The notes: generated from the letters alone by a model not told the origin. Shown: positions 6,047 through 30,016, counted from the stretch's first letter. The stretch: 32,000 nucleotides of DNA from an uncultured Nitrosopumilaceae archaeon (GCA_964475825.1 CAYYXT010000005.1:73529-105528), one strand, 5' to 3'. Program-made: numbers and translations.

Positions 6047-7138
6047 GTGATTAATAATTCTGAGATTAAAAAAATTGTAAGTGGGTATTCGGATGTAAGA
6101 ATAGGAGTGATGGGAAGTCATTCTGCATTAGAAGTTATGGACGGAGCAAAAGATGAAAATTTTCAGACTGTTGTTTACTGCCAAAAAGGCAGAGAAGAGC
6201 CCTATCAAAGATTCAGTAGAATAGCCGATGAAATTGTAGTTTTAAATAAATTCAAAGACATGGCATCACCTAAAATTCAAAAAACTATGAGAGATACAAA
6301 CACCATAGTGATTCCCCATAGATCACTCACAGTGTATCTTGGATACAAAACTCTGGAAAATTCATTCAAAGTTCCAATATTTGGAAATAGAAAGTTATTC
6401 CAGGCAGAAGAAAGAACTGCCAAACGAAATCAATATTATTTATTAGAAAAAGCAAAGATAAAATTTCCAAAATTATTCAAAGACCCAAAAAGCATCAACA
6501 TGCCATGTATTGTTAAAGTTCAAGAAATGAAAAGGCCGTTAGAACGTGCTTTCTTTACTGTGTCATCATACAAAGACTATAAAGAAAAATCAGAGGCAAA
6601 GATAAAACAAGGATTAATCTCTAGAAAAGATTTAGAAAAATCAAGCATAGAAGAACTAGCAATTGGAACATACATGAATTTTAATTTCTTTCACACACCA
6701 ATATCAAAACAAGTTGATTTTATAGGAATAGAAAGAAGACTTCAAACCAATGTGCATGACTATAATGCGCTTCCTGCAAAACAACAATTGGAGATAGATA
6801 TAGATTTACAAAATATCGAAGTGGGTCACACACCAGCAAGCATCCGAGAGTCACTACTTGAAAAAGTAATCAAGATGGGAGACAAATTTGTGGCTACTGT
6901 CAAAAAAGAATATGCCCCAGGAATCATAGGACCATTTTCACTACAAAGTGTAATTACAAAAGATTTGGAATTGGTAGTGTATGATGTATCACTTCGCGTT
7001 CCAGGTAATCCAATTGTAGCAACTACTAGTCCATACACAAAATATCAATACGGTAAAACCTTTGGAGTGGGCAGAAGAATAGCAATGGAGATAAGACGTG
7101 CTCAAGAAGAAGATCGTCTAGATGAAATAGTGACATAG
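6047..7138 (+). CDS. purP: 5-formaminoimidazole-4-carboxamide ribonucleotide (FAICAR) synthetase PurP
   Basis: IGVMGSHSALEVMDGAKDENFQTVVYCQKGREEPYQRF and ATP-grasp-like length (363 aa), typical of archaeal PurP. Other pur genes lie in the same window. Confidence 0.85.
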   Translation: MINNSEIKKIVSGYSDVRIGVMGSHSALEVMDGAKDENFQTVVYCQKGREEPYQRFSRIADEIVVLNKFKDMASPKIQKTMRDTNTIVIPHRSLTVYLGYKTLENSFKVPIFGNRKLFQAEERTAKRNQYYLLEKAKIKFPKLFKDPKSINMPCIVKVQEMKRPLERAFFTVSSYKDYKEKSEAKIKQGLISRKDLEKSSIEELAIGTYMNFNFFHTPISKQVDFIGIERRLQTNVHDYNALPAKQQLEIDIDLQNIEVGHTPASIRESLLEKVIKMGDKFVATVKKEYAPGIIGPFSLQSVITKDLELVVYDVSLRVPGNPIVATTSPYTKYQYGKTFGVGRRIAMEIRRAQEEDRLDEIVT

Positions 7139-7995: not shown

Positions 7996-8091
7996 GAAGA
8001 ATTATTAGTTTTCTGGATATGAAAAATGTTATGGTTTGTTAAAAAGCAAATATCGGTTATAATACCCATATATCTTAGAATGTAGAATAAT

Positions 8092-8160
8092 CAAATGCTG
8101 ATGATTAATAGAAAAGCTATATCTGATTGCTGATGAGTTTGCCGAATTATGAAGCATTTG
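8092..8160 (+). ncRNA. candidate C/D-box sRNA (non-canonical D box)
   Basis: Intergenic. Terminal stem caaatgc (8092-8098) pairs with gcatttg (8154-8160). C box cTGATGA is at 8098-8104, D' CTGA at 8123-8126 and C' cTGATGA at 8130-8136. A 12-nt spacer gtttgccgaatt follows, then ATGA (8149-8152) where the D box CTGA is expected. Weak points: the C-to-D' spacer is 18 nt rather than about 12, and the D box is AUGA. Confidence 0.35.
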
Positions 8161-8247
8161 TCATATACATTTTAGAATTCTAAACAGAGAATCAATTAAG
8201 ACAGAATTAGAGAATAAACCTCTACATATTGGAGAAGAAATTGTATT

Positions 8248-8814
8248 GTGATGGAAGATACCACAGATATTGTATTAGGTGCAAAAAAATTTGCCCAAGA
8301 AAAACACAAAAATCAAAAAAGGAAAGACGGAGTGACTCCATATTCTGATCATTTAGAGGGAGTTGTAAACAGACTCAAAAACTTGGGAGTTACAGATAAA
8401 GATGTATTGTGTGCAGCTTGGCTTCATGACATCATAGAAGATACAGAGGTTACTTTTGATCAGATCAATGAAAGATTTGGAAGGGAAGTTGCAGTGATTG
8501 TTTTATCATTATCAAAAGATCAAAATATTCCAAAAAAAGACAGAGAAATGCAATACATCGACCAGTTAAAAGATGCATCACTTCAAACAAAAATTATCAA
8601 ATTATGTGACATATCCGCAAATCTGAAAGATTTAGCAAATGCACCAATCTCAAAAACTCAGAAAAATAAACAGATCAAAAAGATTTTGCACTATCTCAGA
8701 ATAATTAAAAACGACATATCAGAAAACAAATCAGAATACCCAAAAATTCAAGAAATTATTGATGGGATAAACACAATATGCATTAAATTTAATCAAAATC
8801 CAATTTTAATTTAG
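8248..8814 (+). CDS. HD-domain phosphohydrolase (RelA/SpoT-type (p)ppGpp hydrolase-like)
   Basis: AKKFAQEKHKNQKRKDGVTPYSDHLEGVVNRL...AAWLHDIIEDT...REVAVIVLSLSK matches the HD_4 / SpoT hydrolase-domain pattern. Confidence 0.8.
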   Translation: MMEDTTDIVLGAKKFAQEKHKNQKRKDGVTPYSDHLEGVVNRLKNLGVTDKDVLCAAWLHDIIEDTEVTFDQINERFGREVAVIVLSLSKDQNIPKKDREMQYIDQLKDASLQTKIIKLCDISANLKDLANAPISKTQKNKQIKKILHYLRIIKNDISENKSEYPKIQEIIDGINTICIKFNQNPILI

Positions 8815-18895: not shown

Positions 18896-19477
18896 TTATT
18901 CTAATTCTTGATAATTTTTTGGCATACTAGTACTAAGATAACTCATAACTGTAGGATAGATTGTATCATAGTCTTTATCATTATGAATGATAGTAAAAAT
19001 TCTATGAATTAGCTGTTGAATTTCCAGATGCTCGTCACGGTACAAAGTTTTTTTTGGGTTTTTGTTTGAATCTAAAAGAGTAAATCCATTATCAATCTGG
19101 AATAGATTTTTCAGTAACGAATTTGCTATGACGATCTTTTCATTTGCATCTTTATGCTGATAGTCAGTTTCGAGTTTTTTTATGTAGTTTTTTATGTTGT
19201 GAAAAGATGTGTTTGTAATTCTTTCAATATGTTGTTGAAATCGTGTAGCATAATTTAATGTCGGAACATAGAATTTCATATTCCTTTTTTTTTGAACCGA
19301 GACTATTTCTTTTTCAAGCAATGAATCCCTAGTCTTTTCAAATGTTGTTTTGGCCATACGCTCAGGAACAATCACTTTCATCAATGCATTATGATGCATG
19401 TTGGGATTATTTTTTATGCATTCTAGAACAATCCTCTCACGCTCATATAGTTCTAAATTAGGCTCAAGATAAGTCAT
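18896..19477 (-). CDS. winged-helix DNA-binding protein with helical C-terminal domain
   Basis: The N-terminal ERERIVLECIKNNPNMHHNALMKVIVPERMAKTTFEKTRDSLLEKEIV looks like a wHTH. Its size and architecture resemble 12849-13415. Confidence 0.5.
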   Translation of the reverse strand: MTYLEPNLELYERERIVLECIKNNPNMHHNALMKVIVPERMAKTTFEKTRDSLLEKEIVSVQKKRNMKFYVPTLNYATRFQQHIERITNTSFHNIKNYIKKLETDYQHKDANEKIVIANSLLKNLFQIDNGFTLLDSNKNPKKTLYRDEHLEIQQLIHRIFTIIHNDKDYDTIYPTVMSYLSTSMPKNYQELE

Positions 19478-19852
19478 TATTACTAGGTCGACCTATTATA
19501 TACAGGTTAAGTATTTATCAATATCGTCAACAAATAAAAAATTGGATTTCTGACCCATTTGGTTTTAGTCCTAAAAATTTATCAAAGTTTTGTCAATAAT
19601 ATTATGAAATCTCAATTAAGTTGTTTAGCATAGCATCAAGTTTAGTAGATTAGTATTTAGGAAATAAAACTGATTTTGAAGATGATTCCTACGTGTGCTT
19701 TAAGCAAATTTTGTTATTGTATAACACGTAAACAGCAACGAGGCTGCATCCTGGGAATATCTAGGGATTATCTTTGATTATACTTGAAGAATAGTTTCAG
19801 CTAAAAGAATGCCATCATTATGGATATATGACCATCACATCAAGTCATTAAA

Positions 19853-20101
19853 ATGAGCACAAAAGGAACTGTAATTGGAATAATAATCGCTATTGTAATA
19901 ATAGTAGGAATGCTGACATATACAAATATTTATGATCTTGTAAAACCAAGCATCGAATTATCTGTAGATACTACCAAGGATGCAATCTCTAATGTAGATG
20001 GACAAGATGTAGTGGAAAAGGCTGAAGAAGTATCAAGCATAATCAAAAATGTAACTGACAAAATTAAAGTAACAAATCCACTAGAACAAAAAAATCCTTA
20101 A
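19853..20101 (+). CDS. small membrane-anchored protein
   Basis: 82 aa with one N-terminal TM helix (GTVIGIIIAIVIIVGMLTY). Confidence 0.4.
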   Translation: MSTKGTVIGIIIAIVIIVGMLTYTNIYDLVKPSIELSVDTTKDAISNVDGQDVVEKAEEVSSIIKNVTDKIKVTNPLEQKNP

Positions 20102-20175
20102 TTCATTTCATGTTCAACTCTTTACGTATAAAAATTTGATGTAACGAGTTTTCTTAATATATGATAAAGTTATGA

Positions 20176-20191
20176 TTATCAATTTTGATAA
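20176..20191. promoter_or_regulatory. perfect palindrome TTATCAA-tt-TTGATAA upstream of the wHTH gene (candidate operator)
   Basis: 7-bp arms read directly from the sequence, 61 bp upstream of the ATG at 20252. AT-rich palindromes of this size can arise by chance. Confidence 0.25.
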
Positions 20192-20251
20192 TTCTCTTTT
20201 TGTTTAAATATTGAATGTCCCGTACAAATATTGGTGTTAAGATAGTAAGTT

Positions 20252-20521
20252 ATGAAACAAATAAGCATTGAAAGTATAAGATTAGAGCTTGACTTTGAAC
20301 CAAGCATGAAAACTCTATCGCGTATCGTGAAATTCATGAAAGAGAACGAATCTATTGGTAAGAATCAATTATCACTTCGTGCTAATATACAATATGCCAG
20401 ACTTGCAAATCATGTTGATTGGTTAGAGAAAAAAGGTTTTGTTGAATCAACAATTGATAAATCCAAGATTAATGTTGGTTTGACTGAGAAAGGCAAAGTA
20501 TTTGCTTCAATGATTTTATAA
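20252..20521 (+). CDS. small winged-helix transcription regulator
   Basis: 89 aa. LSRIVKFMKENESIGKNQLSLRANIQYARLANHVDWLEKKGFVE...LTEKGKVF is a typical archaeal wHTH. Confidence 0.55.
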   Translation: MKQISIESIRLELDFEPSMKTLSRIVKFMKENESIGKNQLSLRANIQYARLANHVDWLEKKGFVESTIDKSKINVGLTEKGKVFASMIL

Positions 20522-20540
20522 ACTTAGAGAGTAGTTAATC

Positions 20541-20816
20541 TTAACGCTGATAGAAAGAGAATGTGGTTTGAAAAATGACATTTCTGTTATTCTCAGATGG
20601 TAACGATAAAGTCTCAGTTGAGACATAACCTTTGCCAGATATTACAATTTTTTCATACGGGATTTTTGAGACAAACCATTCCTCTTTATCTGAAATTCCA
20701 GTGATGTCGTTTTGACCGTTTTTAAGAACTAGGTGATTGTTTTTTACGTTAATTGAAACTCCGTAACCTCGGAGTAGTTTTACATTGTAATGATTTCGCT
20801 GATCTTTTTGAGTCAT
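20541..20816 (-). pseudogene. cas1: truncated Cas1/casposase gene (N-terminal ~80 aa only)
   Basis: About 60% identical by eye to residues 1-82 of the full casposase at 28820-29893 (QRNHYNVKLLRGYGVSINVK...PYEKIVISGKGYVSTETLSLPSENNRNVI versus QKNHYNIKFLKGYGHSISVK...PYEKIVLQGKGYISTEALSLLSENNRNVI). Homology stops right after NRNVI, and a stop codon follows 10 codons later. The catalytic C-terminal domain is absent. Confidence 0.8.
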
Positions 20817-20834
20817 TTACAATCTAAAAATAGA

Positions 20835-21548
20835 TTACTTTGATTCACAGCCAATACCGTCTTTACCCCCGTCAAATCTGTGTGGGTCTGGTGGCAATAC
20901 TCTAAAGTTTTTGTAAGAAATGTCCTTGCAATTCAAATCTGGAGGATATGGCTTTATGCACACATCAGGATAGGAAGGATCACAGTTGCTCACTTTGTTT
21001 TGAGTAGGTTTGGAAGTTTCTTTTGAAATTTGAGGCTTTATCACTTTTGTAGCACAGCCATATTTCTGTGCCCATATTTCTGCTGAAAATTCACTAACAG
21101 AGCAGAATTGTTTTGATATTTTGGCATGATTGTTATACAATAATTCTGAATTGAGATTCTCACCATTACAAATTACTTTTCCTAAAACTCGTTTATACTT
21201 GTCATTAGGCTTTTTATCGTCTTGATCTACAATAACCTTAGAACCAACAGGGCAAATCTTCTTTAAGAAATTAGATGCTTCAACACCTTCCTTAGTTTTT
21301 AATTCAGGTGTAGAGGTTAAGGATAATCGGATCTTCTTGTATTTTTTAACGCCATCAACTATTTCTTTTACCCACAACGTATCGCCATCAACTATTTTTA
21401 TCACAGTTCCATCGATGCATGATGCTGTTCCTTTGCACTTGTATTGAGATGATACGTTTTGTTTTTGGTCACTAGTACCCTCAGATGATGCAAAAGATGT
21501 CGCAGAAACAAGCATGATAGCAATTAAATAAAATATGATGATCTTCAT
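20835..21548 (-). CDS. secreted staphylococcal-nuclease (SNase/thermonuclease)-like protein with C-terminal Excalibur-like Cys-rich region
   Basis: Signal peptide. GTVIKIVDGDTLWV...KIRLSLTSTPE...EASNFLKKICPVGSKVIV..DKYKRVLGKV..NGENLNSELLYNNHA is the SNase pattern. The C-terminus reads CDPSYPDVCIKPYPPDLNCKDI..FRVLPPDPHRFDGGKDGIGCE. Confidence 0.8.
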   Translation of the reverse strand: MKIIIFYLIAIMLVSATSFASSEGTSDQKQNVSSQYKCKGTASCIDGTVIKIVDGDTLWVKEIVDGVKKYKKIRLSLTSTPELKTKEGVEASNFLKKICPVGSKVIVDQDDKKPNDKYKRVLGKVICNGENLNSELLYNNHAKISKQFCSVSEFSAEIWAQKYGCATKVIKPQISKETSKPTQNKVSNCDPSYPDVCIKPYPPDLNCKDISYKNFRVLPPDPHRFDGGKDGIGCESK

Positions 21549-21589
21549 ACGTTTTGAATGATCTTCCTAAATAAAAAAGATTACGACAC

Positions 21590-21624
21590 ACAGCAGGTTT
21601 TCACTCATGAAACGGGGGATACTA
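21590..21624. repeat. diverged casposon terminal repeat (right end of the remnant element)
   Basis: GCAGGTTTT (21593-21601) and a G5 run (21614-21618) lie 32 and 11 nt from the att repeat. In the intact right TIR, GCAGGTTTT (29965-29973) and a G6 run (29986-29991) lie 33 and 12 nt from it. The intervening bases differ. Confidence 0.5.
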
Positions 21625-21643
21625 TTTTTATTCTCTGTCAATA
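21625..21643. repeat. 19-bp direct repeat / target-site duplication, left copy (tttttattctctgtcaata)
   Basis: Identical to 29998-30016. It flanks the inverted repeats on the outside. The outer 4-7 nt overlap the inverted-repeat match, so the true TSD may be about 14-15 bp. Confidence 0.9.
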
Positions 21644-21720
21644 AAAAGGCAGTCCCCCCTCTTTACTCACAAAAACCTGCGTCTGACTAAAGTAATGATG
21701 AACTATGATTTGTTGGAAAT
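21644..21720. repeat. left terminal inverted repeat of casposon
   Basis: The reverse complement of 21644-21720 equals 29925-30001 base for base (checked by hand). The match can be extended to 21641/30004 into the direct repeat. Confidence 0.95.
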
Positions 21721-21727
21721 CAGATAT

Positions 21728-22747
21728 TTATGGAGTCTTGAATGCTAATTTGCTAAATTTCTCTTTGTATTCTAAATACAACTCAAGAATTCGCATCATT
21801 GAAAAAATAACTCTTTGTAAATCTTGAATGACAAATCTAAGATTATTGTGAACTTCATGTTTGTATTTCTCCATCTGAATTAATGAAGAACAATCCTTAA
21901 AATCAAATACCGTGTTGTGGGTAACCATATATTTACAGTATTTTTCTATGTCTAAATCTTCGGGATCAATGTACTCCATTTCTTCTTTTAAGTTGATTAA
22001 AAGATCAATCTCATGTTGTGGAAAATCCTCATGTGGAAATTTTTCAGCGTTTTTAAATTCATTAAGTAATGAACGATACGCGTTGGATAATTTCCAAAAT
22101 GCGATGAATTGGATATTGGATAAACGATTAATCATATCGGATTCATTTTGTTTAAAAAAATGTTTGAAAATATCAAATCCCTTTCTCAGTTCTCTAGCAT
22201 TTCCATTGTAAATTAACCAACGCTGTGCATCAGTTCCAACAGATAAACGAAGGAATACCTCATCAAGAAACATGATCATGGCATGTTGAATAAATTGTCG
22301 ATAATGAGCAGATTTCTGAATTAATTCTGTTTCTTCTTTTGGATATTTTGGTTTTGGACCGCTCTCGATAATGTATCTCCGTGCTTCAACACATTTATCC
22401 TTAAAATCATCATCGGTAAAGATTAACTTTTCATCACCATATATCAAAAAGCCTATTTTCGAATCTTTTTGAACCATAGGAATTCTTTCCATCCCTAGTG
22501 CTTGAGCGTAGCCTAATTCTTGGTTTACAGATGCTGAAGCAAGAGAATCATCAGTAAATATGGCAATTAGATAATCAGAATGAATAATTTCATTTATGAT
22601 TTTCTTATCCACCGCTTTACCATATTTTTTCTTATCTTCGAAAATAAAAGCTTCCTCTATAAGTTCGCTTTCTTCTAAGATTTCTTTTAATGTTTTAGCT
22701 AAATCATAATTATCTTCGACATGACTTATGAAAATTTTCACAAACAT
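21728..22747 (-). CDS. TIR-like (TIR_2/DUF1863-like) domain protein with unknown helical C-terminal domain
   Basis: The N-terminal ~115 aa read KIFISHVEDNYDLAKTLKEILEES..EAFIFED...GKAVDKKIINEIIHSDYLIAIFTDDSLASASVNQELGYAQALGMERIPMV. This follows the bacterial TIR-like pattern (FISH..D..a..l...L.....f.d....G......i...i...d..i.i.s..s..S.wv.qE.g.A...g..iipv). The C-terminal ~210 aa are not recognised. Confidence 0.5.
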   Translation of the reverse strand: MFVKIFISHVEDNYDLAKTLKEILEESELIEEAFIFEDKKKYGKAVDKKIINEIIHSDYLIAIFTDDSLASASVNQELGYAQALGMERIPMVQKDSKIGFLIYGDEKLIFTDDDFKDKCVEARRYIIESGPKPKYPKEETELIQKSAHYRQFIQHAMIMFLDEVFLRLSVGTDAQRWLIYNGNARELRKGFDIFKHFFKQNESDMINRLSNIQFIAFWKLSNAYRSLLNEFKNAEKFPHEDFPQHEIDLLINLKEEMEYIDPEDLDIEKYCKYMVTHNTVFDFKDCSSLIQMEKYKHEVHNNLRFVIQDLQRVIFSMMRILELYLEYKEKFSKLAFKTP

Positions 22748-22788
22748 GATTGGAAAAAAATCTTATTAAGTCTGATCCTGTATGAAAG

Positions 22789-24606
22789 TTAAATTTTTGT
22801 AACATCAAACAAAGGTAGAGGAAACGGTGATGAAACATTGTGCTCTTTTAGACGAACATCTGTCAGTCTTCCGTGCCACAATCTGCCTCTATCTCCATTA
22901 ACATTCAGTTGTTTAGAAGCAGTGTAAAACGAACCAATCTTTTCAAGCGTTCCCCTATTCAAATTTTCTTTTAGGGTTCCAACTCGTAGTTTTTCAAATG
23001 AATACTTGATTCGTCCTTTAGAATCAATTGTTGTTTCTTTGTGATTAATTGATTCATCACCAATAGAGCCAATCCCTCTGGATTTTTCCCAAATATCATT
23101 TTTAGCATAAAATCCACTTTGCAGGGCATAAATGGAACCCTCAAAATCAGAAGAAAACTCACCCATTTCTTTGGAATCTAGATCAAGTTTCTTTTTACTG
23201 CAAATCGAATCAGTGTACATCATGATAACTTCCTTTTCTATTCCATGTTTCATAATACAGGAATACAACATAGCTCTGGCTATTCCCGTAATTGTAGATA
23301 CAATTGCAGGATTGAAAATATTTCCCATTTTGTTATCCGTGGTTTGCCCAGTTTTGCCATAAATTGCATTTAGAATTATCTTAAATGGTTGTTCCAATGG
23401 ATTACCTTGATTCTTTAGTTCCTGTCTTTGTCTGTACATTTCCTTGATTGGTTTTTTGTATGGATAGTATGGATTGGAATCACAATACTGCCAAGAATCT
23501 AAAATTTCATACCATGATGAATCCTCACAGGCTCGTAATTCTGCAAGTGTGACAAACGTGATAAACTCACCTACTGGATAAATTAACTTTGATCTGACCT
23601 TGAAAGGAAATGGTGTGATGTGTTTTGTTAGTGGAATGTTTGCTTTGATTTTAAAAAATCCAATGACTACATTGTCTTGAATCTCATTTGATTGAATCCA
23701 TTTTCCCTTTGTAAGTTCTGGAACTAGTGTCAATGCAAAAGGGAATGCGGAATTTATATCATAAATAAAACTCTGTTTGTTGTATCCACGTTCTACTAGT
23801 TCAATTCGTCCACCTGCGTATGCATTCCAAGCTATCTCTTGAGCTTGTTCTGGAATCTCATCAAATTTTGGCAGTATGACTCCTTTGTTGATCAGTATTT
23901 TTTCTGCCAGATACCCTGACGAAATCCAATGACTAGGGTAAAACCCAAATGCTTTGAAAAACATATCAATCCAATTTGTAACTAGTTGAGCAGTAAACTT
24001 GCAATCAGAAATACAATAATTTCGTATTAGTTTCTTGTGTCTTTTGTAATAGTCTATTGTGAAATCCTTTCGTATCTCTTTCATCTCCAAGTATTCTTTA
24101 GGTAATTTGCCAATATTCTTTTGATATGCTTCTGTCAGTTTCTTTTGAAAGTAAAATTGAGAAATATCAAAAAATGTTACTGAATGCTTGCCTTTACGAA
24201 TTGAAAGTTTCTTTTCTTCAATGTAATGAATTGAATATCCTAGGATCTTGCATCGAAATCTTTGGGTAAAGTGAAATAATTCCTTTTTTGATAAAGTCAT
24301 TAGAATCATTTTTAGGATTATTCTTGCGTCATAGTGAAGATTCCAGAAAAAGCACCATGATGATTGATATCTCTTATGAAAAAGAAATTTGAGAGTATTT
24401 TCAAGTGATGTATTGGCTAGTTCTATGTAGTGTTCTTCATTATCTGCCAGTAATAGCATACTTCCGTTTGTTGTAGCCTCAATGTCCAAAGCATAGATTT
24501 TACGCCTATCAGAGGTAGCTTTGCGCCTGAATTGTGGTCTTTTTCTTAGATGTTTTAGAGTTCTGCACTTACTCGTGGGAATTTCTAAGCAGATGGATTT
24601 TGCCAT
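22789..24606 (-). CDS. polB: family B DNA polymerase, protein-primed type (pPolB)
   Basis: Exo I YALDIEATT, Exo II FFWNLHYDARIIL, Exo III YCISDCKFT, motif A IYDINSAFPFAL, motif B KIILNAIYGKTG and motif C MMYTDSICS all occur in the canonical order. The compact 605-aa size is typical of protein-primed PolBs. Confidence 0.9.
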   Translation of the reverse strand: MAKSICLEIPTSKCRTLKHLRKRPQFRRKATSDRRKIYALDIEATTNGSMLLLADNEEHYIELANTSLENTLKFLFHKRYQSSWCFFWNLHYDARIILKMILMTLSKKELFHFTQRFRCKILGYSIHYIEEKKLSIRKGKHSVTFFDISQFYFQKKLTEAYQKNIGKLPKEYLEMKEIRKDFTIDYYKRHKKLIRNYCISDCKFTAQLVTNWIDMFFKAFGFYPSHWISSGYLAEKILINKGVILPKFDEIPEQAQEIAWNAYAGGRIELVERGYNKQSFIYDINSAFPFALTLVPELTKGKWIQSNEIQDNVVIGFFKIKANIPLTKHITPFPFKVRSKLIYPVGEFITFVTLAELRACEDSSWYEILDSWQYCDSNPYYPYKKPIKEMYRQRQELKNQGNPLEQPFKIILNAIYGKTGQTTDNKMGNIFNPAIVSTITGIARAMLYSCIMKHGIEKEVIMMYTDSICSKKKLDLDSKEMGEFSSDFEGSIYALQSGFYAKNDIWEKSRGIGSIGDESINHKETTIDSKGRIKYSFEKLRVGTLKENLNRGTLEKIGSFYTASKQLNVNGDRGRLWHGRLTDVRLKEHNVSSPFPLPLFDVTKI

Positions 24607-24920
24607 ATTACATCATTAATGTCTACATCCTCGCCCCTACGTCTTGCAAAGAACTGAGAGAACACCTGCTTCAAAGTATATTTTTCTCTTAGTTCTGGAT
24701 ATGTGTCATAGGTCAGTTTCACATATCGCCAAACATTTTTCATAAAACTAGAACGCTTTTGGTTAGGATCAAAGATTTTTGGTTTTGGAATTTTGATTTG
24801 TGTTTCTAGTTTTTGTTTTTCTTTGGTAAGTCGTTTTCGCAGAGTTACAGCTTCCTTGATTCGTAAAGACTTTAGCCCATCTAATAGTGAGTTAATCTTA
24901 TCTATGTCAATTGATTTCAT
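24585..24920 (-). CDS. hypothetical basic protein, overlaps the polB start by 22 nt
   Basis: 111 aa, Lys/Arg-rich helical N-terminus. The 22-nt overlap with polB suggests co-translation. Confidence 0.5.
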   Translation of the reverse strand: MKSIDIDKINSLLDGLKSLRIKEAVTLRKRLTKEKQKLETQIKIPKPKIFDPNQKRSSFMKNVWRYVKLTYDTYPELREKYTLKQVFSQFFARRRGEDVDINDVIWQNPSA

Positions 24921-24952
24921 TATTTATCACACCTTAAAATGAAAAAAAGAGA

Positions 24953-25300
24953 TTAGAGGACTTTCACCTCAAAATCTCTTAGTTCATTTTCTGGATTTCT
25001 GCTAGACTTTCTTAGCCAAGTTTTGATTTCCAGTACTGTTCCAGACTTTATTTTTCCATCATGTAACAATTTATTGTACTGTCTGTACAGTATTTTGTTT
25101 GACGACTTTGCTTTCAATGGAATGTTTGTATCTACCATGTCCATTTTTGCAAGAACATTCAAGTCAAACTGTGTTTCAAATGGTTCTGGATCTATTATTT
25201 CCACTTGAATGATGTCTGGATTTTCAGAGTCCTTGCTTTTGTAGTTACCCCACTTCAAAAACTGTGGCAGTAATGTGTCACTCATTTGTGACATCTCCAT
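24953..25300 (-). CDS. hypothetical protein
   Basis: 115-aa ORF in the polB-upstream operon. It overlaps the 25278-25511 ORF by 23 nt. Confidence 0.5.
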   Translation of the reverse strand: MEMSQMSDTLLPQFLKWGNYKSKDSENPDIIQVEIIDPEPFETQFDLNVLAKMDMVDTNIPLKAKSSNKILYRQYNKLLHDGKIKSGTVLEIKTWLRKSSRNPENELRDFEVKVL

Positions 25301-25511
25301 TGTTTTCTACGGATGTCAGTTTGATGAATTTCTCATCTTTTGACTGAACCAATTTTACATTGACATGCGATGTGATATCGCAGTTGTCTAATGCAGTCTT
25401 TGGTAACACAACTATCTTTGAAAAATTTTGTTGTGATACCTTGCGGTTTCCAAAATCAGTTTCCACAGAAACATGATTTTCTAGTGTTTTTGCTTTGGTT
25501 TTTCTTGGCAT
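25278..25511 (-). CDS. small DNA-binding-like protein (possible AbrB/SpoVT-type fold)
   Basis: 77 aa. SKIVVLPKTALDNCDITSHVNVKLVQSKDEKFIKLTSV resembles the swapped-hairpin pattern (v.iPk.al..l.i.....v.v......i.l). Weak, judged by eye. Confidence 0.35.
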   Translation of the reverse strand: MPRKTKAKTLENHVSVETDFGNRKVSQQNFSKIVVLPKTALDNCDITSHVNVKLVQSKDEKFIKLTSVENNGDVTNE

Positions 25512-25562
25512 GTTATTAATACGAACATTATGCTTAAATCAGTCTAAAATACTAATTTTAAC
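25512..25562. promoter_or_regulatory. 51-bp divergent intergenic region inside the casposon (probable back-to-back promoters)
   Basis: It separates start codons at 25511 (-) and 25563 (+) and contains TATA-like stretches (ttattaata, ttaaat, taaaatact). Both transcripts would have very short leaders. No experimental support. Confidence 0.3.
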
Positions 25563-26120
25563 ATGAAAAAAGGACAAACTGCAAAGCAAGAAAAGATTTT
25601 AATGGAAATAAAAAAGACACATCCCAAACTCACTTTAATCAAACCTCTTGAATTTGCAAGACTTTTCCATTCTGAAGATTTTCCTTTTGAAAATAAACCG
25701 CGACTTCATCGCGAAGTAACTGAGAAAGTTATTCAGTTTTTTGATGATTATCATTACGCCACTAGAGAATTACCAACATCATACAAAGTAAAAATTATTA
25801 CAAGTAGAGGGTTTAGTGATTGTCTTAATAGTATAATTCGTGACATGTCGTATGTAGATAAAAAACAAAAATCAGAAGAACCTGAGAAACAATTGTCATT
25901 TATGATGTATTATAATTTTTTTAGTCTTGGAATTGAGGGGTTGATAAAAAGTATGCCTGAAGAATTCAGATATACATTACAAGATCAAATTAGACCTGCA
26001 CTGTTACTTATGCAATCTATTACAAGATTTACACTTCAATCAGATTCTAAAAAGAAAGTTCCGTTTGTTCATGCACCTGATTTTATGCTTAAGAAAGGTA
26101 TTGCAGATAATTTAGAATAG
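25563..26120 (+). CDS. hypothetical protein
   Basis: 185-aa ORF, one of only two plus-strand genes in the element. No motif recognised. Confidence 0.5.
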   Translation: MKKGQTAKQEKILMEIKKTHPKLTLIKPLEFARLFHSEDFPFENKPRLHREVTEKVIQFFDDYHYATRELPTSYKVKIITSRGFSDCLNSIIRDMSYVDKKQKSEEPEKQLSFMMYYNFFSLGIEGLIKSMPEEFRYTLQDQIRPALLLMQSITRFTLQSDSKKKVPFVHAPDFMLKKGIADNLE

Positions 26121-26141
26121 TCATAATCTGATTTTATTAGT

Positions 26142-26423
26142 TTGAAGTATCATAGAGGTATCATGAAGTATATAGTTTCAGTGTCAAAAACTTACATTCA
26201 CAGGGGAAATCACAGACATAAATCAGATACAAAGAAGCATTGGTTCATCTATTACTATGAAGATAATGTTTTCAAAACAAAACAAGTTAGTTTGACAGAA
26301 GCATTATTTTACAAAACTCAGAAATACAAACGTATCAAGTATGTTTGTTTAGAATGTGGAAATATGTTTTTGGGATTTGTAAAATCAACTAAAGAAGAAC
26401 TAGATTGTCCTTATTGTGAATAA
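26142..26423 (+). CDS. hypothetical protein with C-terminal zinc ribbon
   Basis: 93 aa (TTG start in the track; an internal Met in MKYIVS is possible). Cysteine pairs CLEC...CPYC. Confidence 0.45.
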   Translation: MKYHRGIMKYIVSVSKTYIHRGNHRHKSDTKKHWFIYYYEDNVFKTKQVSLTEALFYKTQKYKRIKYVCLECGNMFLGFVKSTKEELDCPYCE

Positions 26424-26488
26424 TGGAAAGATAGTAAATTATGCCTCTTTTCATGCCTAAAATCCTTAAGTTAATACAAAAATTAGTT

Positions 26489-28045
26489 TTATGATTTTTC
26501 TTCTAATTTTTTTGCTTGATCAAAACATCTGATAGCTTCTTCAAATTTGTCTAGAGAATTTAGTGCATTGCCTTTGTTATTCCATGCATCTGCATCTTTT
26601 GGATTAATCTCTAACATTTTATCCAAACATCTTATAGATTCTTCATATTTGCCAAGTTCGCCAAATGCACCACCTTTGTTATGCCACGCATCTGCATACT
26701 TGGGATTGATCTCCAATGCTTGATCAAAACATGTGATTGCCTCTTCATGTTTACCTAGTTTACCAAGTACAACACCTTTGTCATTCCATGCAATTATATA
26801 ATTTGGATTAATCTCTAATGCTTCATCAAAACATGTGATAGCTTCTTCAAATTTGTCTAGTCCTTCACCAAGTACAACACCTTTGTTATGCCATGCATCT
26901 ATAAAATCTGAATTAATGTTAATAGATTTATCAAAACATGTGATTGCCTCTTCATGTTTACCTAGTTTACCAAGTACAACACCTTTGTAATTCCATGCAA
27001 TTGTATAATTTGGATCAATTTTAATTGCTTTATCATAACATCTGATAGATTCTTCATGTTTACCGAGATCGTAAAATGCTCTACCTTTGTTATACCATGC
27101 CTTAGAATCATCTGAATTAATCTCTAATGCTTGATCAAAACATCTGATTGCCTCTTCATGTTTACCTAGTTCGTCAAGTGCAACACCTTTACCATTCCAT
27201 GCAATTGTATAATCTGGATTAATCTCCAATGCTTGATCACAACATCGAATAGATTCTTCATGTTTGCCGAGATCGTAAAATGCTCTACCTTTGTTATACC
27301 ATGCCTTAGAATCATCTGAATCGATGTTGATTGTATTATCATAACATTTGATAGCTTCTTCATGTTTACCGAGATTAGATAATGCAATGCCTTTGTCAAT
27401 CCACACTTCTGTAACATCTGGATTAATCTCTAATGCTTCATCATAACATCTGATAGCTTCCTCAAATTTTCCTAGTTTACCAAGTACAACACCTTTGTTG
27501 TTTAATGCGGTAGCATCATCAGGATCAATTTTAATTGCTTCATCATAACATCTGATAGATTCCTCAAATTTTCCTAGTTTACCAAGTACAACACCTTTGT
27601 TGTTTAATGCGGTAGCATCATCAGGATCAATTTTAATTGCTTCATCATAACATCTGATAGCTTCCTCAAATTTGTCAAGCTCGCCAAGTGCACTTCCTTT
27701 GTTAGTCCACATTTCTACGGCATCTGGATTAATCTCCAATACTTTATCAAAACATATGATTGCCTCTTCATGTTTACCAAGTTTACCAAGTGCAATACCT
27801 TTACTATTCCATGTAATTGTATAATCGGGATTAATCTCCAATACTTTATCAAAACATCTAATTTCTTCTTCATGTTTACCAAGTTCACCCAAGGAAAGTC
27901 CTTTGTTATGCCACGCATTTACAGCATCTGGATTAATCTCCAATACTTTATCAAAACATGCGATTGCATCTTCAAATTTGTCAAGTTTACCAAGTGCAAC
28001 ACCTTTGTTAAACCACTCTTCAGCACTTTTTTTCCTACCAAACAA
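26489..28045 (-). CDS. tetratricopeptide-repeat (TPR) protein, ~15 consecutive 34-aa repeats
   Basis: The whole 518 aa is a 34-aa periodic array: W.NKG.aLg.LGK.EEAI.C.DkaLEINPd... Confidence 0.9.
   Translation of the reverse strand: MFGRKKSAEEWFNKGVALGKLDKFEDAIACFDKVLEINPDAVNAWHNKGLSLGELGKHEEEIRCFDKVLEINPDYTITWNSKGIALGKLGKHEEAIICFDKVLEINPDAVEMWTNKGSALGELDKFEEAIRCYDEAIKIDPDDATALNNKGVVLGKLGKFEESIRCYDEAIKIDPDDATALNNKGVVLGKLGKFEEAIRCYDEALEINPDVTEVWIDKGIALSNLGKHEEAIKCYDNTINIDSDDSKAWYNKGRAFYDLGKHEESIRCCDQALEINPDYTIAWNGKGVALDELGKHEEAIRCFDQALEINSDDSKAWYNKGRAFYDLGKHEESIRCYDKAIKIDPNYTIAWNYKGVVLGKLGKHEEAITCFDKSININSDFIDAWHNKGVVLGEGLDKFEEAITCFDEALEINPNYIIAWNDKGVVLGKLGKHEEAITCFDQALEINPKYADAWHNKGGAFGELGKYEESIRCLDKMLEINPKDADAWNNKGNALNSLDKFEEAIRCFDQAKKLEEKS
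27437..27673. repeat. near-perfect 102-bp tandem duplication (2.3 copies) inside the TPR gene
   Basis: Units start at 27437, 27539 and 27641. Units 1 and 2 differ at one base (gatagCttcc versus gatagAttcc). They encode two RCYDEAIKIDPDDATALNNKGVVLGKLGKFEE[S/A]I repeats. A separate 204-bp-spaced repeat pair lies at about 27047 and 27251. Confidence 0.9.
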
Positions 28046-28112
28046 TAACTATACTAAACCTACAATTTAATGAAGATTCTGAAAGACCATTCTAAACTCT
28101 TTTTAGAATGTG

Positions 28113-28775
28113 TCATTCCTCACAATAAGGCTCGGTATCTATTTTTTTATTTTCATCACGCCTTGAATTTTCTTTTTCTATTCGTTTCAAAAATCGTTTT
28201 TTTAATGCTGTAAAATGTCTTGCAGTCCGAGGATTATTCTCTTGTCGTCTTTTTATCTCAACTTCTAATGTATTCCAATCTCTTACTATCATTTCGCCAT
28301 AAGTATCAAAAAATAATTCCTTATCCACTAAATCATTTAGAACTAGAACGGACACCTGATCAAATGAAGAAATCACTTTATCTACATAATCTTTCATATG
28401 TGGATCATCACTATTATTGAAAGATATTTCCTTTTGACTATTTTTTAATTTACAGTATTCTTTATGAACTTTCTCTCTAGATGTTCTAATGTCTATACTA
28501 CTTAGTAATTCAAAAATTTTTGTCATAGAGGTAGTTTGTAATTGCTTATTTTGATAAACCTGATTTGTATAGGCAATGACGATTGTGATTATTATTCCAA
28601 TAATGGCAACTAAAGCTAACATCCTATCATCATACTCAAAATTCGGATAATCCATAGTCATTATGATGTATCCAAACACCACTAGAACTCCAATAATTAT
28701 ACCGATAATACTACTATGCCAAAGAGTTTTTTCAGTATATTTTGACCAACTAACATCCCTAAATTGTTCAAGCAT
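28113..28775 (-). CDS. membrane-anchored protein (two N-terminal TM helices plus a helical cytoplasmic domain; DUF4760-like by eye)
   Basis: TM helices SSIIGIIIGVLVVFGYIIM and LALVAIIGIIITIVIAY. The C-terminal region VISSFDQVSVLVLNDLVDKELFFDTYGEMIVRDWNTLEVEIKRRQ...PRTARHFTAL is reminiscent of DUF4760-type proteins. The family call is from memory and needs an HMM check. Confidence 0.5.
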   Translation of the reverse strand: MLEQFRDVSWSKYTEKTLWHSSIIGIIIGVLVVFGYIIMTMDYPNFEYDDRMLALVAIIGIIITIVIAYTNQVYQNKQLQTTSMTKIFELLSSIDIRTSREKVHKEYCKLKNSQKEISFNNSDDPHMKDYVDKVISSFDQVSVLVLNDLVDKELFFDTYGEMIVRDWNTLEVEIKRRQENNPRTARHFTALKKRFLKRIEKENSRRDENKKIDTEPYCEE

Positions 28776-28819
28776 TTGTAATTCTTAAATGAAGAATGGA
28801 ATATAAAAACAAGATATTG

Positions 28820-29893
28820 TCAAATAATTAAATCAGTTCTTTTACCAATACAAAATTCAGCGAGATTCTGAATCATAATTTTTGCAATAGTGATTTCTTG
28901 AACATTTTTCAATCCATCTTTTGTCTTTGCCCCATGTCTAAACTTGTATCTTCTATCTTGCTGAAATGTTCTTTCCAATAATTCCAAGAATTTTCTAATC
29001 AGATTATACTCCATAACTACAACCCCGTCTCTAGTATGAGTAAATTCATCTAATCGAATTCTCTGATTGTGATCTTTGATATTTGCAATCTTGAATACTG
29101 TATAATCAACTAGCCACCTGAAAGGCTCTATCATGTCATACACTAACGGTTGAAATCCTGTATGAGGCTTGTGATAAAACCCATAGTAAGCATCTAATCC
29201 AAATCCATTTACAAATTTAGAAATCTCACCAGCTAGTACGGCATAACCATAGTTTAGTAAAGCATTGATTACATCAGTAGCCTGATTTTTTGATATTTTC
29301 ATTTTAGACTGATTTCTTGAATGAAATTCGTATCTTTCGGGAATTAATCTGGCAAATGCTCTAAAGTAAATGTGAGATGTTTTTGCTTCGTTTTGAATAG
29401 GGGTAGAAATACTAGATAGATCAGCAAGATACGATTCTAGTTTTGAAATAGCATCTGTGACCTCATCTCTTTGAATAAGTTTGAGAAATCTGATTTGTGA
29501 TTCTAGTTTTGCCTTTACAATCTGTCTTGATAGATACTTACATTTCTCAGGGTTTCTAAATGTGTCATACTGAGCAATTCGATAATTTGTTGCCGTTAAT
29601 GATTCCATTACTGGATTTAGATAAGTAATTGGTTTTCCGTATGTATCAACTAAAATGACATTTCGATTATTCTCAGATAATAGGCTTAATGCTTCAGTTG
29701 AAATGTATCCCTTACCTTGCAGAACTATCTTTTCGTATGGCATATTTTTGACATACCATGATTCTATTTGTGGCTCTGAGAAAGGATCAAAACAGTTCTT
29801 CAAAATTATCTTTGAATCTTTTACTGAAATAGAATGACCATATCCTTTTAGAAATTTGATGTTGTAATGGTTTTTCTGTCCTATCAACGTCAT
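28820..29893 (-). CDS. cas1: Cas1-family integrase (casposase)
   Basis: 357 aa. N-terminal beta-domain (NHYNIKFLKGYGHSISVKDSKIILKN), then NALLNYGYAVLAGEI and YGFYHKPHTGFQPLVYDMIEPFRWLVD, which match the Cas1 catalytic His and acidic motifs (GflH......aLv.DlmEpfR). The start lies 31 nt inside the right TIR boundary. Confidence 0.9.
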   Translation of the reverse strand: MTLIGQKNHYNIKFLKGYGHSISVKDSKIILKNCFDPFSEPQIESWYVKNMPYEKIVLQGKGYISTEALSLLSENNRNVILVDTYGKPITYLNPVMESLTATNYRIAQYDTFRNPEKCKYLSRQIVKAKLESQIRFLKLIQRDEVTDAISKLESYLADLSSISTPIQNEAKTSHIYFRAFARLIPERYEFHSRNQSKMKISKNQATDVINALLNYGYAVLAGEISKFVNGFGLDAYYGFYHKPHTGFQPLVYDMIEPFRWLVDYTVFKIANIKDHNQRIRLDEFTHTRDGVVVMEYNLIRKFLELLERTFQQDRRYKFRHGAKTKDGLKNVQEITIAKIMIQNLAEFCIGKRTDLII

Positions 29894-29924
29894 AACGAAA
29901 ATTATTACTTTTAGTATTTAGAAA

Positions 29925-29997
29925 ATTTCCAACAAATCATAGTTCATCATTACTTTAGTCAGACGCAGGTTTTTGTGAGTAAAGAGGGGGGACTGCC
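29925..29997. repeat. right terminal inverted repeat of casposon
   Basis: Perfect reverse complement of the left TIR. It contains a G6 run that is unusual for this AT-rich sequence. Confidence 0.95.
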
Positions 29998-30016
29998 TTT
30001 TTATTCTCTGTCAATA
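29998..30016. repeat. 19-bp direct repeat / target-site duplication, right copy, overlapping the aEF-2 stop codon
   Basis: Identical to 21625-21643. On the minus strand it covers 1 nt of the Tyr codon, codons I-D-R-E, the stop (30001-30003) and 3 nt beyond. Confidence 0.9.

Follow-up and report, generated by a model that had tools for sequence, protein, structure and literature searches.

Organization of the locus

The window analyzed here, a stretch of 32,000 nucleotides from an uncultured Nitrosopumilaceae archaeon (GCA_964475825.1, CAYYXT010000005.1:73529-105528), carries between positions 21643 and 30002 what is very probably a structurally intact family-1 casposon, located right after the stop codon of the aEF-2 gene of a Nitrosarchaeum-like ammonia-oxidizing archaeon. 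The CRISPR adaptation machinery presumably descends from casposons, of which, to our knowledge, very few look currently active. A first-pass annotation of this DNA had already proposed a casposon of family 1, and the proposal was sustained by our analysis, as all the features of thaumarchaeal family-1 casposons that can be tested in a sequence were found in the element: a solo, compact Cas1, a family-B DNA polymerase (PolB) of the protein-primed type, three small genes, terminal inverted repeats with a target duplication, and insertion at the 3' end of aEF-2. Both PolB and Cas1 are encoded between one pair of inverted repeats. The three small conserved genes upstream of polB form part of the definition of the family (PMC4046053; PMC6563490). 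The element, its ends and its target gene are organized as follows.

21625-21643, left copy of a 19-bp direct repeat; its 13-bp core, 21630-21642, reads ATTCTCTGTCAAT on the + strand
21643-21720, left terminal inverted repeat, 78 bp if the duplication is 13 bp
21728-22747, - strand, TIR-domain protein, 339 aa, with an N-terminal TIR domain (PF13676 TIR_2, 1e-7) and a C-terminal helical domain
22789-24606, - strand, family-B DNA polymerase of predicted protein-primed type, 605 aa (PF03175 DNA_pol_B_2, 1e-19)
24585-24920, - strand, orf111, directly upstream of polB and overlapping its start; homologues in the same position in 25 casposon loci
24953-25300, - strand, orf115, second conserved small core gene; homologues in 22 loci, in the same order
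25278-25511, - strand, orf77, third conserved small core gene; homologues in 20 loci, in the same order
25563-26120, + strand, orf185, semi-conserved casposon gene; homologues in 5 casposon loci, with 56% identity in locus L046
26142-26423, + strand, orf93, with a C-terminal CxxC...CxxC zinc-ribbon-like motif; homologues in 13 casposon loci, with up to 80% identity
26489-28045, - strand, tetratricopeptide repeat (TPR) protein, 518 aa, about 15 repeats (TPR_1, 2.5e-165, 15 stretches)
28113-28775, - strand, DUF4760 protein, 220 aa, cargo or accessory gene, with two N-terminal transmembrane helices (PF15956, 1e-16)
28820-29893, - strand, Cas1 casposase, 357 aa (PF01867, E=6e-51)
29925-30002, right terminal inverted repeat
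29998-30016, right copy of the 19-bp direct repeat (13-bp duplication probably at 30003-30015); overlaps the final five aEF-2 codons
30001-32000 and beyond, - strand, aEF-2, the target gene (Pfam GTP_EFTU, EFG_III, EFG_IV, EFG_C), with its N-terminus outside the window

All ten genes of the element are full length relative to their homologues, in agreement with the early remark that none shows obvious disruption. The lengths, in amino acids and against those of the nearest homologues, are 605/605 for PolB, 357/357 for Cas1, 111/111 for orf111, 339/337 for the TIR-domain protein and 220/218-220 for DUF4760. The aEF-2 frame is open up to the end of the window, so this gene is simply cut by it. 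The base composition of the element is not distinguishable from that of the host, and a scan for bacterial promoters and terminators, which is unsuited to archaea, gave results no better than those of shuffled sequences.

Casposase and DNA polymerase

The protein encoded at 28820-29893, described from the start as a full-length Cas1 homologue, was recognized as such in the profile search listed above and has the length of its nearest homologues. Its sole Pfam match was Cas_Cas1, at residues 19-307, with no helix-turn-helix (HTH) or zinc-binding domain fused to it. Among solved structures the best match was the Methanosarcina mazei casposase 6OPM (8e-28), and residues E169, H241 and D253 align with the conserved positions of the Cas1 active site. 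The protein passed the generic Cas1 model, yet remained below the cut-off of every CRISPR-subtype Cas1 model, with scores, for example, of 108 against 385 for I-D and 94 against 120 for II. At E<=1e-20 there were 914 homologues. The nearest 100+ came from ammonia-oxidizing archaea and every one that was inspected had a casposon context, as did all of the nearest relatives (80-92% identity). With these relatives in casposons and no subtype model passed, the protein does not appear to group with the CRISPR-associated Cas1 proteins.

The lack of cas2, cas4 and a repeat-spacer array in the 32 kb, pointed out when the element was first described, was also seen by array search and by a PADLOC scan. 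No repeat-spacer array, tRNA or Rfam family was found in the window, and the scan of the plausible open reading frames (ORFs) outside the element showed no Cas2, Cas4 or other Cas protein, merely a winged-HTH resemblance to Csa3.

The polymerase matched the protein-primed profile PF03175, as the annotation of 22789-24606 had anticipated, with a score of 71 bits for a cut-off of 25.8; DNA_pol_B_2 represents the organellar and viral protein-primed group. It also matched phrog_11768 (2e-54), and the models of RNA-primed Pol II scored it merely about 20 bits. On these scores the enzyme is predicted to belong to the protein-primed type. It had been credited with every exonuclease and polymerase motif. 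This held for the exonuclease motifs (Exo I, D41xE43; Exo II, N89..YD93; Exo III, Y197..D201) and for polymerase motifs A (D283INSAFP) and B (K409..N..YG), but not for motif C, which reads YTDS (residues 463-466, window 23209-23220) instead of DTDS. Since this motif is [A/Y]TDS in 22 of 22 aligned members of the family (the window protein and 21 relatives), the missing first Asp of DTD is a family trait and not damage.

Concerning the core genes, orf111 had no match in Pfam, PHROG or NCBIfam, and the terminal (priming) protein has been proposed to be encoded at its position (PMC4046053). Likewise, orf185 matched no family in the profile databases searched, Pfam included.

Ends of the element and target duplication

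By direct search of the window, the longest perfect inverted repeat was of 81 bp, 21640-21720 versus 29925-30005, and the 77-bp arms of the perfect repeat of 77-80 bp first annotated fall within it. A repeat finder gave one outstanding inverted repeat in the window, with arms of 92 nt (21629-21720 and 29925-30016) that are 95% complementary. The identical 19-bp direct repeat TTTTTATTCTCTGTCAATA, annotated outside the inverted repeat, was confirmed in exactly two copies (21625-21643 and 29998-30016); there was no third copy in the window at up to 3 mismatches, against a chance expectation of 0.12. A segment of 28 nt from the terminal repeat occurred at both element ends only, with 0 chance matches expected, and both the 81-bp inverted repeat and the 19-bp direct repeat were missing in shuffled controls.

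The direct repeat shares 4 nt with the inverted repeat on the left side and 8 nt on the right side, which leaves the exact limits of the element ambiguous from sequence alone. In the family-1 casposase of N. koreensis an apparent duplication of 22 bp was experimentally found to be of 13 bp, ATTGATAAAGAGT, in which A1, A11 and T13 are critical (PMC8464041). The homologous 13-mer in the window, ATTGACAGAGAAT on the aEF-2 sense strand, retains A1, A11 and T13. Based on this homology, the true target duplication is probably this 13-mer, located at 21630-21642 and 30003-30015. The element would then span 21643-30002, that is, 8,360 bp (about 8.36 kb), with perfect terminal repeats of 78 bp, and the 19-bp repeat would probably consist of the 13-bp duplication plus shared end bases. 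Such extra repeated bases could come from two sources: an AAAAA end common to the new element and to the terminus of an adjacent older element (see below), and the self-complementary ends of the target (ATT...AAT). The perfect inverted repeat reaches as far as 21640 owing to the self-complementary ends of the duplication.

On the aEF-2 sense strand the order is ...GAATAT, ATTGACAGAGAAT, AAAAAGGCAGTCCCCCC ... GGGGGGACTGCCTTTTT, ATTGACAGAGAAT, AAAAATAGTATCCCCC..., and the 3' end of the terminal repeat reads ...CTGCCTTTTT. The target duplex, as reconstructed, would have the leader ...GAATAT followed by ATTGACAGAGAAT and AAAAATAG. The terminus AAAAAGGCAGTCCCCCC fits the family terminus AAAAA[T/G][A/G]G..(C)5-9, which is common to the termini of the relatives. 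The duplication contributes its last T, and the element its first two A's, to the stop codon of aEF-2 (TAA); the element sits directly behind the gene and the coding sequence of aEF-2 is preserved. Insertion at the 3' end of aEF-2 is common in family 1, although it is not universal.

The steps of insertion can be proposed by analogy with the biochemically characterized family-1 casposase of N. koreensis and with the published casposon model. Cas1 would join the 3' ends of the terminal repeats to both borders of the 13-bp target ATTGACAGAGAAT, beside a short leader on the aEF-2 side, and gap repair would then produce the target duplication. Its own PolB would replicate the element, with a terminal protein, possibly orf111, as primer. 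The integration of terminal-repeat DNA with duplication by a family-1 casposase has been shown for the N. koreensis enzyme only (PMC8464041).

Host and history of the insertion site

Over its C-terminal 199 aa, aEF-2 shares 98% identity with Nitrosarchaeum metagenome-assembled genomes (MAGs); the best nucleotide identity is 94%. The host is therefore apparently Nitrosarchaeum-like, and the Nitrosopumilus host supposed at first was abandoned.

Between the intact element and the neighboring host gene lie the remains of another casposon.

19640-21629, - strand, older casposon relic, about 2 kb
20541-20816, Cas1 N-terminal fragment ORF of the relic, 91 aa
20835-21548, staphylococcal-nuclease-like ORF of the relic, full-length, intact- and secreted-looking
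about 21545-21629, degraded terminal-repeat end of the relic, which aligns with the active terminal repeat

The Cas1 fragment shows 79% amino acid identity to the Cas1 of locus L017 and 89% nucleotide identity to that of L114, and the nuclease region is homologous to the stretch from terminal repeat to Cas1 in L090, L092 and L148. Host synteny resumes at about 19640, and no further target copy that would mark a left boundary of the relic was found at up to 3 mismatches. As the relic terminus and the Cas1 fragment stand beside the left duplication, the intact element inserted into a target copy regenerated by an earlier casposon, and the aEF-2 site, as judged from this arrangement, has been used repeatedly. 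Tandem family-1 insertions at ef-2 have already been published (PMC6563490). The nuclease may have been kept while the rest of the relic decayed; a look-up of the exact protein, aimed at contigs that join this ORF directly to aEF-2, gave no record.

The comparison with related genomes suggested in the first-pass annotation, aimed at finding empty sites, was made at the aEF-2 3' site of 80 species-representative Nitrosopumilaceae genomes, with the following result.

No casposon trace, 43/80
Terminal-repeat-like end only, 13/80
Cas1 or PolB fragments, 11/80
Full Cas1 plus PolB, 2/80
Contig ending at the attachment site, 4/80
aEF-2 3' end not located by the search, 7/80

Thus, the site is in most cases empty or occupied by footprints, and different casposons, intact in 2-3 genomes only, are also present; the element described here was in 0 of the 80 genomes. 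These states exclude that the element is fixed and dead in all relatives. The aEF-2 3' site is a hot spot with turnover, where the life cycle of these elements becomes visible: an intact element beside a decayed one in the window, and empty sites and footprints in relatives. The host gene at 18896-19477 of the window follows aEF-2 in relatives after as little as 260 bp.

Identical DNA was found elsewhere in three Logan contigs only, from independent assemblies of two sequencing runs (SRR6868922, SRR6868923), which match 21691-26752 and 27930-29938 at 100%, a total of 7.07 kb of the interior. The breaks of these contigs fall within the terminal repeats and the TPR repeats, and the Cas1 of the window was located on a 2-kb Logan contig only.

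In many Nitrosopumilaceae genomes without Cas1 the sequence AAATAGAA(T)CCCCC was located right past the aEF-2 stop codon; this is the consensus casposon terminus (L002-L081, first 70 nt). Otherwise clean aEF-2 sites also often begin with AAATAGAA. Such starts could be footprints of excision or deletion, or the element ends could mimic the native flank of the target.

Alternative explanations

Some observations count against an intact family-1 casposon at this position. There is no direct sign of movement and a single copy of the element was seen; the predicted empty-site junction GGGATACTATTTTTATTCTCTGTCAATATATTCG had 0 matches in metagenome contigs, in a search that demanded an exact match and is uninformative on mobility. 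The genomes compared are not conspecific, as the best aEF-2 nucleotide identity given above indicates. The leader in the window is TAT, a Tyr codon conserved in Nitrosarchaeum, whereas the sole characterized family-1 casposase requires TTT, and positions 5-8 of the duplication are ACAG and not the ATAA ruler of the N. koreensis enzyme, so its target rules cannot simply be transferred. The host-element junctions are known from the window assembly alone, as the Logan contigs stop within the terminal repeats. Motif C of the polymerase lacks the first Asp of DTD, though family-wide, and for the terminal protein there is a candidate only, orf111.

The casposon may be a recent arrival that is now fixed or silenced and merely looks intact; we consider this rather unlikely, in spite of the observations that favor it. 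The empty-site allele and a second copy were not found, the contigs of both Logan runs show the filled interior only, and at this site 2 intact elements compare with about 24 footprints or fragments in the 80 genomes, so decay is the usual fate. An immobile copy is harder to reconcile with terminal repeats identical in 81 of 81 positions, an identical duplication and ten full-length genes; the adjacent older copy shows how fast decay becomes visible. Current mobility of the family-1 casposon is plausible. A far less probable explanation is that the assembly is chimeric and that a casposon contig was joined to the aEF-2 locus through its repeat-like ends. Short-read contigs do break inside the terminal and TPR repeats, and four related contigs stop right at the attachment site; yet the same aEF-2-to-Cas1 junction is present in many independent assemblies, complete chromosomes included, the expected duplication stands at both junctions, and one protein of the element is also recorded from an NCBI contig of 107.6 kb.

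An integrated small virus or plasmid, similar to His1 or to pleolipoviruses and using Cas1 together with a protein-primed PolB, could be imagined because the PolB belongs to the viral protein-primed type, with a match to a phage polymerase family, because five ORFs have no annotation, and because the PolBs of casposons are placed beside those of His1 and His2 in the literature (PMC4046053). This is very improbable: the searches of PHROGs and Pfam gave no match to capsid, packaging or other virion-related proteins, the unannotated ORFs are conserved casposon core genes, and both size and layout fit the casposons described. Even less credit can be given to a Cas1 that belongs to a CRISPR adaptation module, with its array and other cas genes beyond the window. 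Public annotations do call the homologues "CRISPR-associated endonuclease Cas1" and the generic Cas1 models score well, but this Cas1 missed all subtype cut-offs, lies within inverted repeats alongside the protein-primed PolB, and has no array or other cas gene within 32 kb; moreover, its homologues of 80-92% identity share the casposon context, with flanks of up to 10 kb and no cas genes. We retain the family-1 casposon as the very probable identity of the segment. With its identical ends, full-length genes and known target it would be a good natural substrate for the study of excision, protein-primed replication and target choice, and its leader and ruler bases, unlike those of the sole characterized family-1 system, would make it a more informative test of target choice. 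Neither these target differences nor the cargo described below change its classification.

Cargo genes

The TIR, TPR and DUF4760 genes are cargo and not core. DUF4760 and TIR-domain genes were tried as core casposon genes and rejected, as they were present in 2 and 3 of about 64 unbiased Cas1 loci. Most likely, the three proteins are defense or conflict cargo.

The TIR-domain protein shows weak similarity to ThsB (8e-5), and its motif SASVNQELGYA, which includes the candidate catalytic Glu (E77), is invariant in 17 homologues. In its AlphaFold2 (AF2) model (pLDDT 85) the N-terminal domain matches the folds of SARM1, TIR-STING, AbTir, ThsB and SpbK; no fold match was obtained for the C-terminal helical domain. 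Full-length homologues with about 40% identity are located elsewhere amid OLD, GmrSD, DndB and helicase genes and transposases. TIR-domain genes are also carried by the casposons L168, L114 (a TIR-TPR fusion) and L125 (a TIR-TPR fusion and a second TIR protein).

The DNA of the TPR gene is a tandem array with a period of 102 bp and about 15 units, 70-82% identical, with a strong negative GC skew, and short-read contigs break within it. Paralogues with 41-46% identity are present in the casposon loci L083 and L093. A truncated TIR-TPR fusion was considered as the origin of this 518-aa protein and rejected, since 67 nt separate the gene from the next one and the similarity to the fusions of L125 and L114 is a generic 28%.

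DUF4760 genes adjoin Cas1 also in L125 (9329-10000), L086 (1343-1846) and L175-178, which are otherwise divergent family-1 casposons; L175 holds two of them (6411-6878 and 8001-8654). The AF2 model of the window protein is all-helical (pLDDT 86), with no match to a PDB fold at E<1 and no PADLOC match.

It is conceivable, though doubtful, that the TIR, TPR and DUF4760 proteins jointly form an abortive-infection module that is carried by the casposon and is distantly analogous in function to Thoeris. In such a module, sensing would fall to the TPR protein and the consumption of NAD+ or the production of a signal to the TIR domain, with DUF4760 as the part that acts at the membrane. The backing is thin but real. 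Locus L125 (9307-17525; Cas1 56% identical) has the same three ingredients as the window, namely DUF4760, a 653-aa TIR-TPR fusion and another TIR protein of 447 aa, and behind it, as beside the element of the window, lie the terminal repeat of a relic and a fragment of Cas1; to this are added the fusion in L114 and the defense-island-like surroundings of the TIR homologues. No SIR2, SLOG or Macro protein was found in the element, so it has no ThsA-type partner for a Thoeris-like pairing. If the three proteins did act jointly, family-1 casposons would be vehicles that spread innate-immunity genes among ammonia-oxidizing archaea. These archaea are, as far as we know, globally important nitrifiers and mostly without CRISPR. 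The cargo described here adds to the hints that casposons carry defense genes in them.

Comparison with other casposons and related systems

The closest Cas1 (92% identity) was found in L162, right after an aEF-2 of 729 aa. Loci L163-167, with 88-90% identity in Cas1, have the same core and other cargo (MBOAT, methyltransferases, MazE), and one of them is a tandem pair. The closest genome-resolved relative is an unannotated casposon of Nitrosarchaeum sp. LAS73 (L168; GCA_036984365.1, BQXB01000003.1). It shares with the element the PolB (87%, full length), Cas1 (80%), orf111 (82%), orf115 (74%) and terminal repeats (about 90%), as well as a TIR-domain protein downstream of polB. However, its length is about 10.9 kb, it is the second element of a tandem array and is inverted with respect to aEF-2, genes for TPR and DUF4760 proteins are missing, and the C-terminal domain of its TIR protein is unrelated.

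Compared by description, the Nitrosopumilus casposons NitAR1-C1, NitSJ-C1 and NitAR2-C1 (PMC4046053, PMC8464041) have, like the element of the window, a Cas1 without HTH, a protein-primed PolB, three small genes, terminal inverted repeats, and an insertion at the aEF-2 3' end that spares the gene, with a homologous 13-bp core in which A1, A11 and T13 are conserved. The element differs from them in its Nitrosarchaeum-like host, in TAT in place of TTT and ACAG in place of ATAA, and in the TIR/TPR/DUF4760 cargo. Repeated use of the ef-2 target, arrays of elements and nuclease or defense-like cargo are shared with NitNF5-C1/C2 of Ca. Nitrosopumilus adriaticus (PMC6563490), whereas the second element in the window is a relic of about 2 kb and the cargo is a TIR-domain protein instead of OLD, NERD, HNH or Cas4. 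Family-1 casposons had already been noted in Nitrosarchaeum, and the element type, the target and tandem insertion are all known.

The family-2 casposons (AciBoo-C1 and that of Methanosarcina mazei, 6OPM) also use Cas1-mediated integration, with a duplication of about 14 bp, but their PolB is of the RNA-primed type, their Cas1 ends in a C-terminal HTH, and they carry an HNH nuclease and target tRNA genes. Outside the casposons, Tn7 offers a parallel at attTn7, downstream of glmS: it recognizes where a conserved, essential gene ends and integrates immediately behind it, leaving it undamaged, although with unrelated enzymes (TnsABCD), no polymerase and a duplication of 5 bp.

Other observations

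The host ORF at 2095-2826 of the window has a winged-HTH region similar to the C-terminal part of Csa3/CARF regulators (3.6e-7) and a predicted membrane segment; by its context it is not a Cas protein. In Nitrosarchaeum sp. LAS73 a full-length Cas1, 80% identical to that of the window, was located downstream of a ribosomal-protein operon (L169, 10001-11074), with no PolB within 10 kb; this could be a solo Cas1, or what is left of a casposon that decayed at a second target site. Finally, in L164 (4-936 versus 1044-2099) a second Cas1 fragment stands inverted beside a full Cas1, with 82% nucleotide identity to the Cas1 and terminal repeat of the window, which suggests head-to-head casposon copies on this contig.

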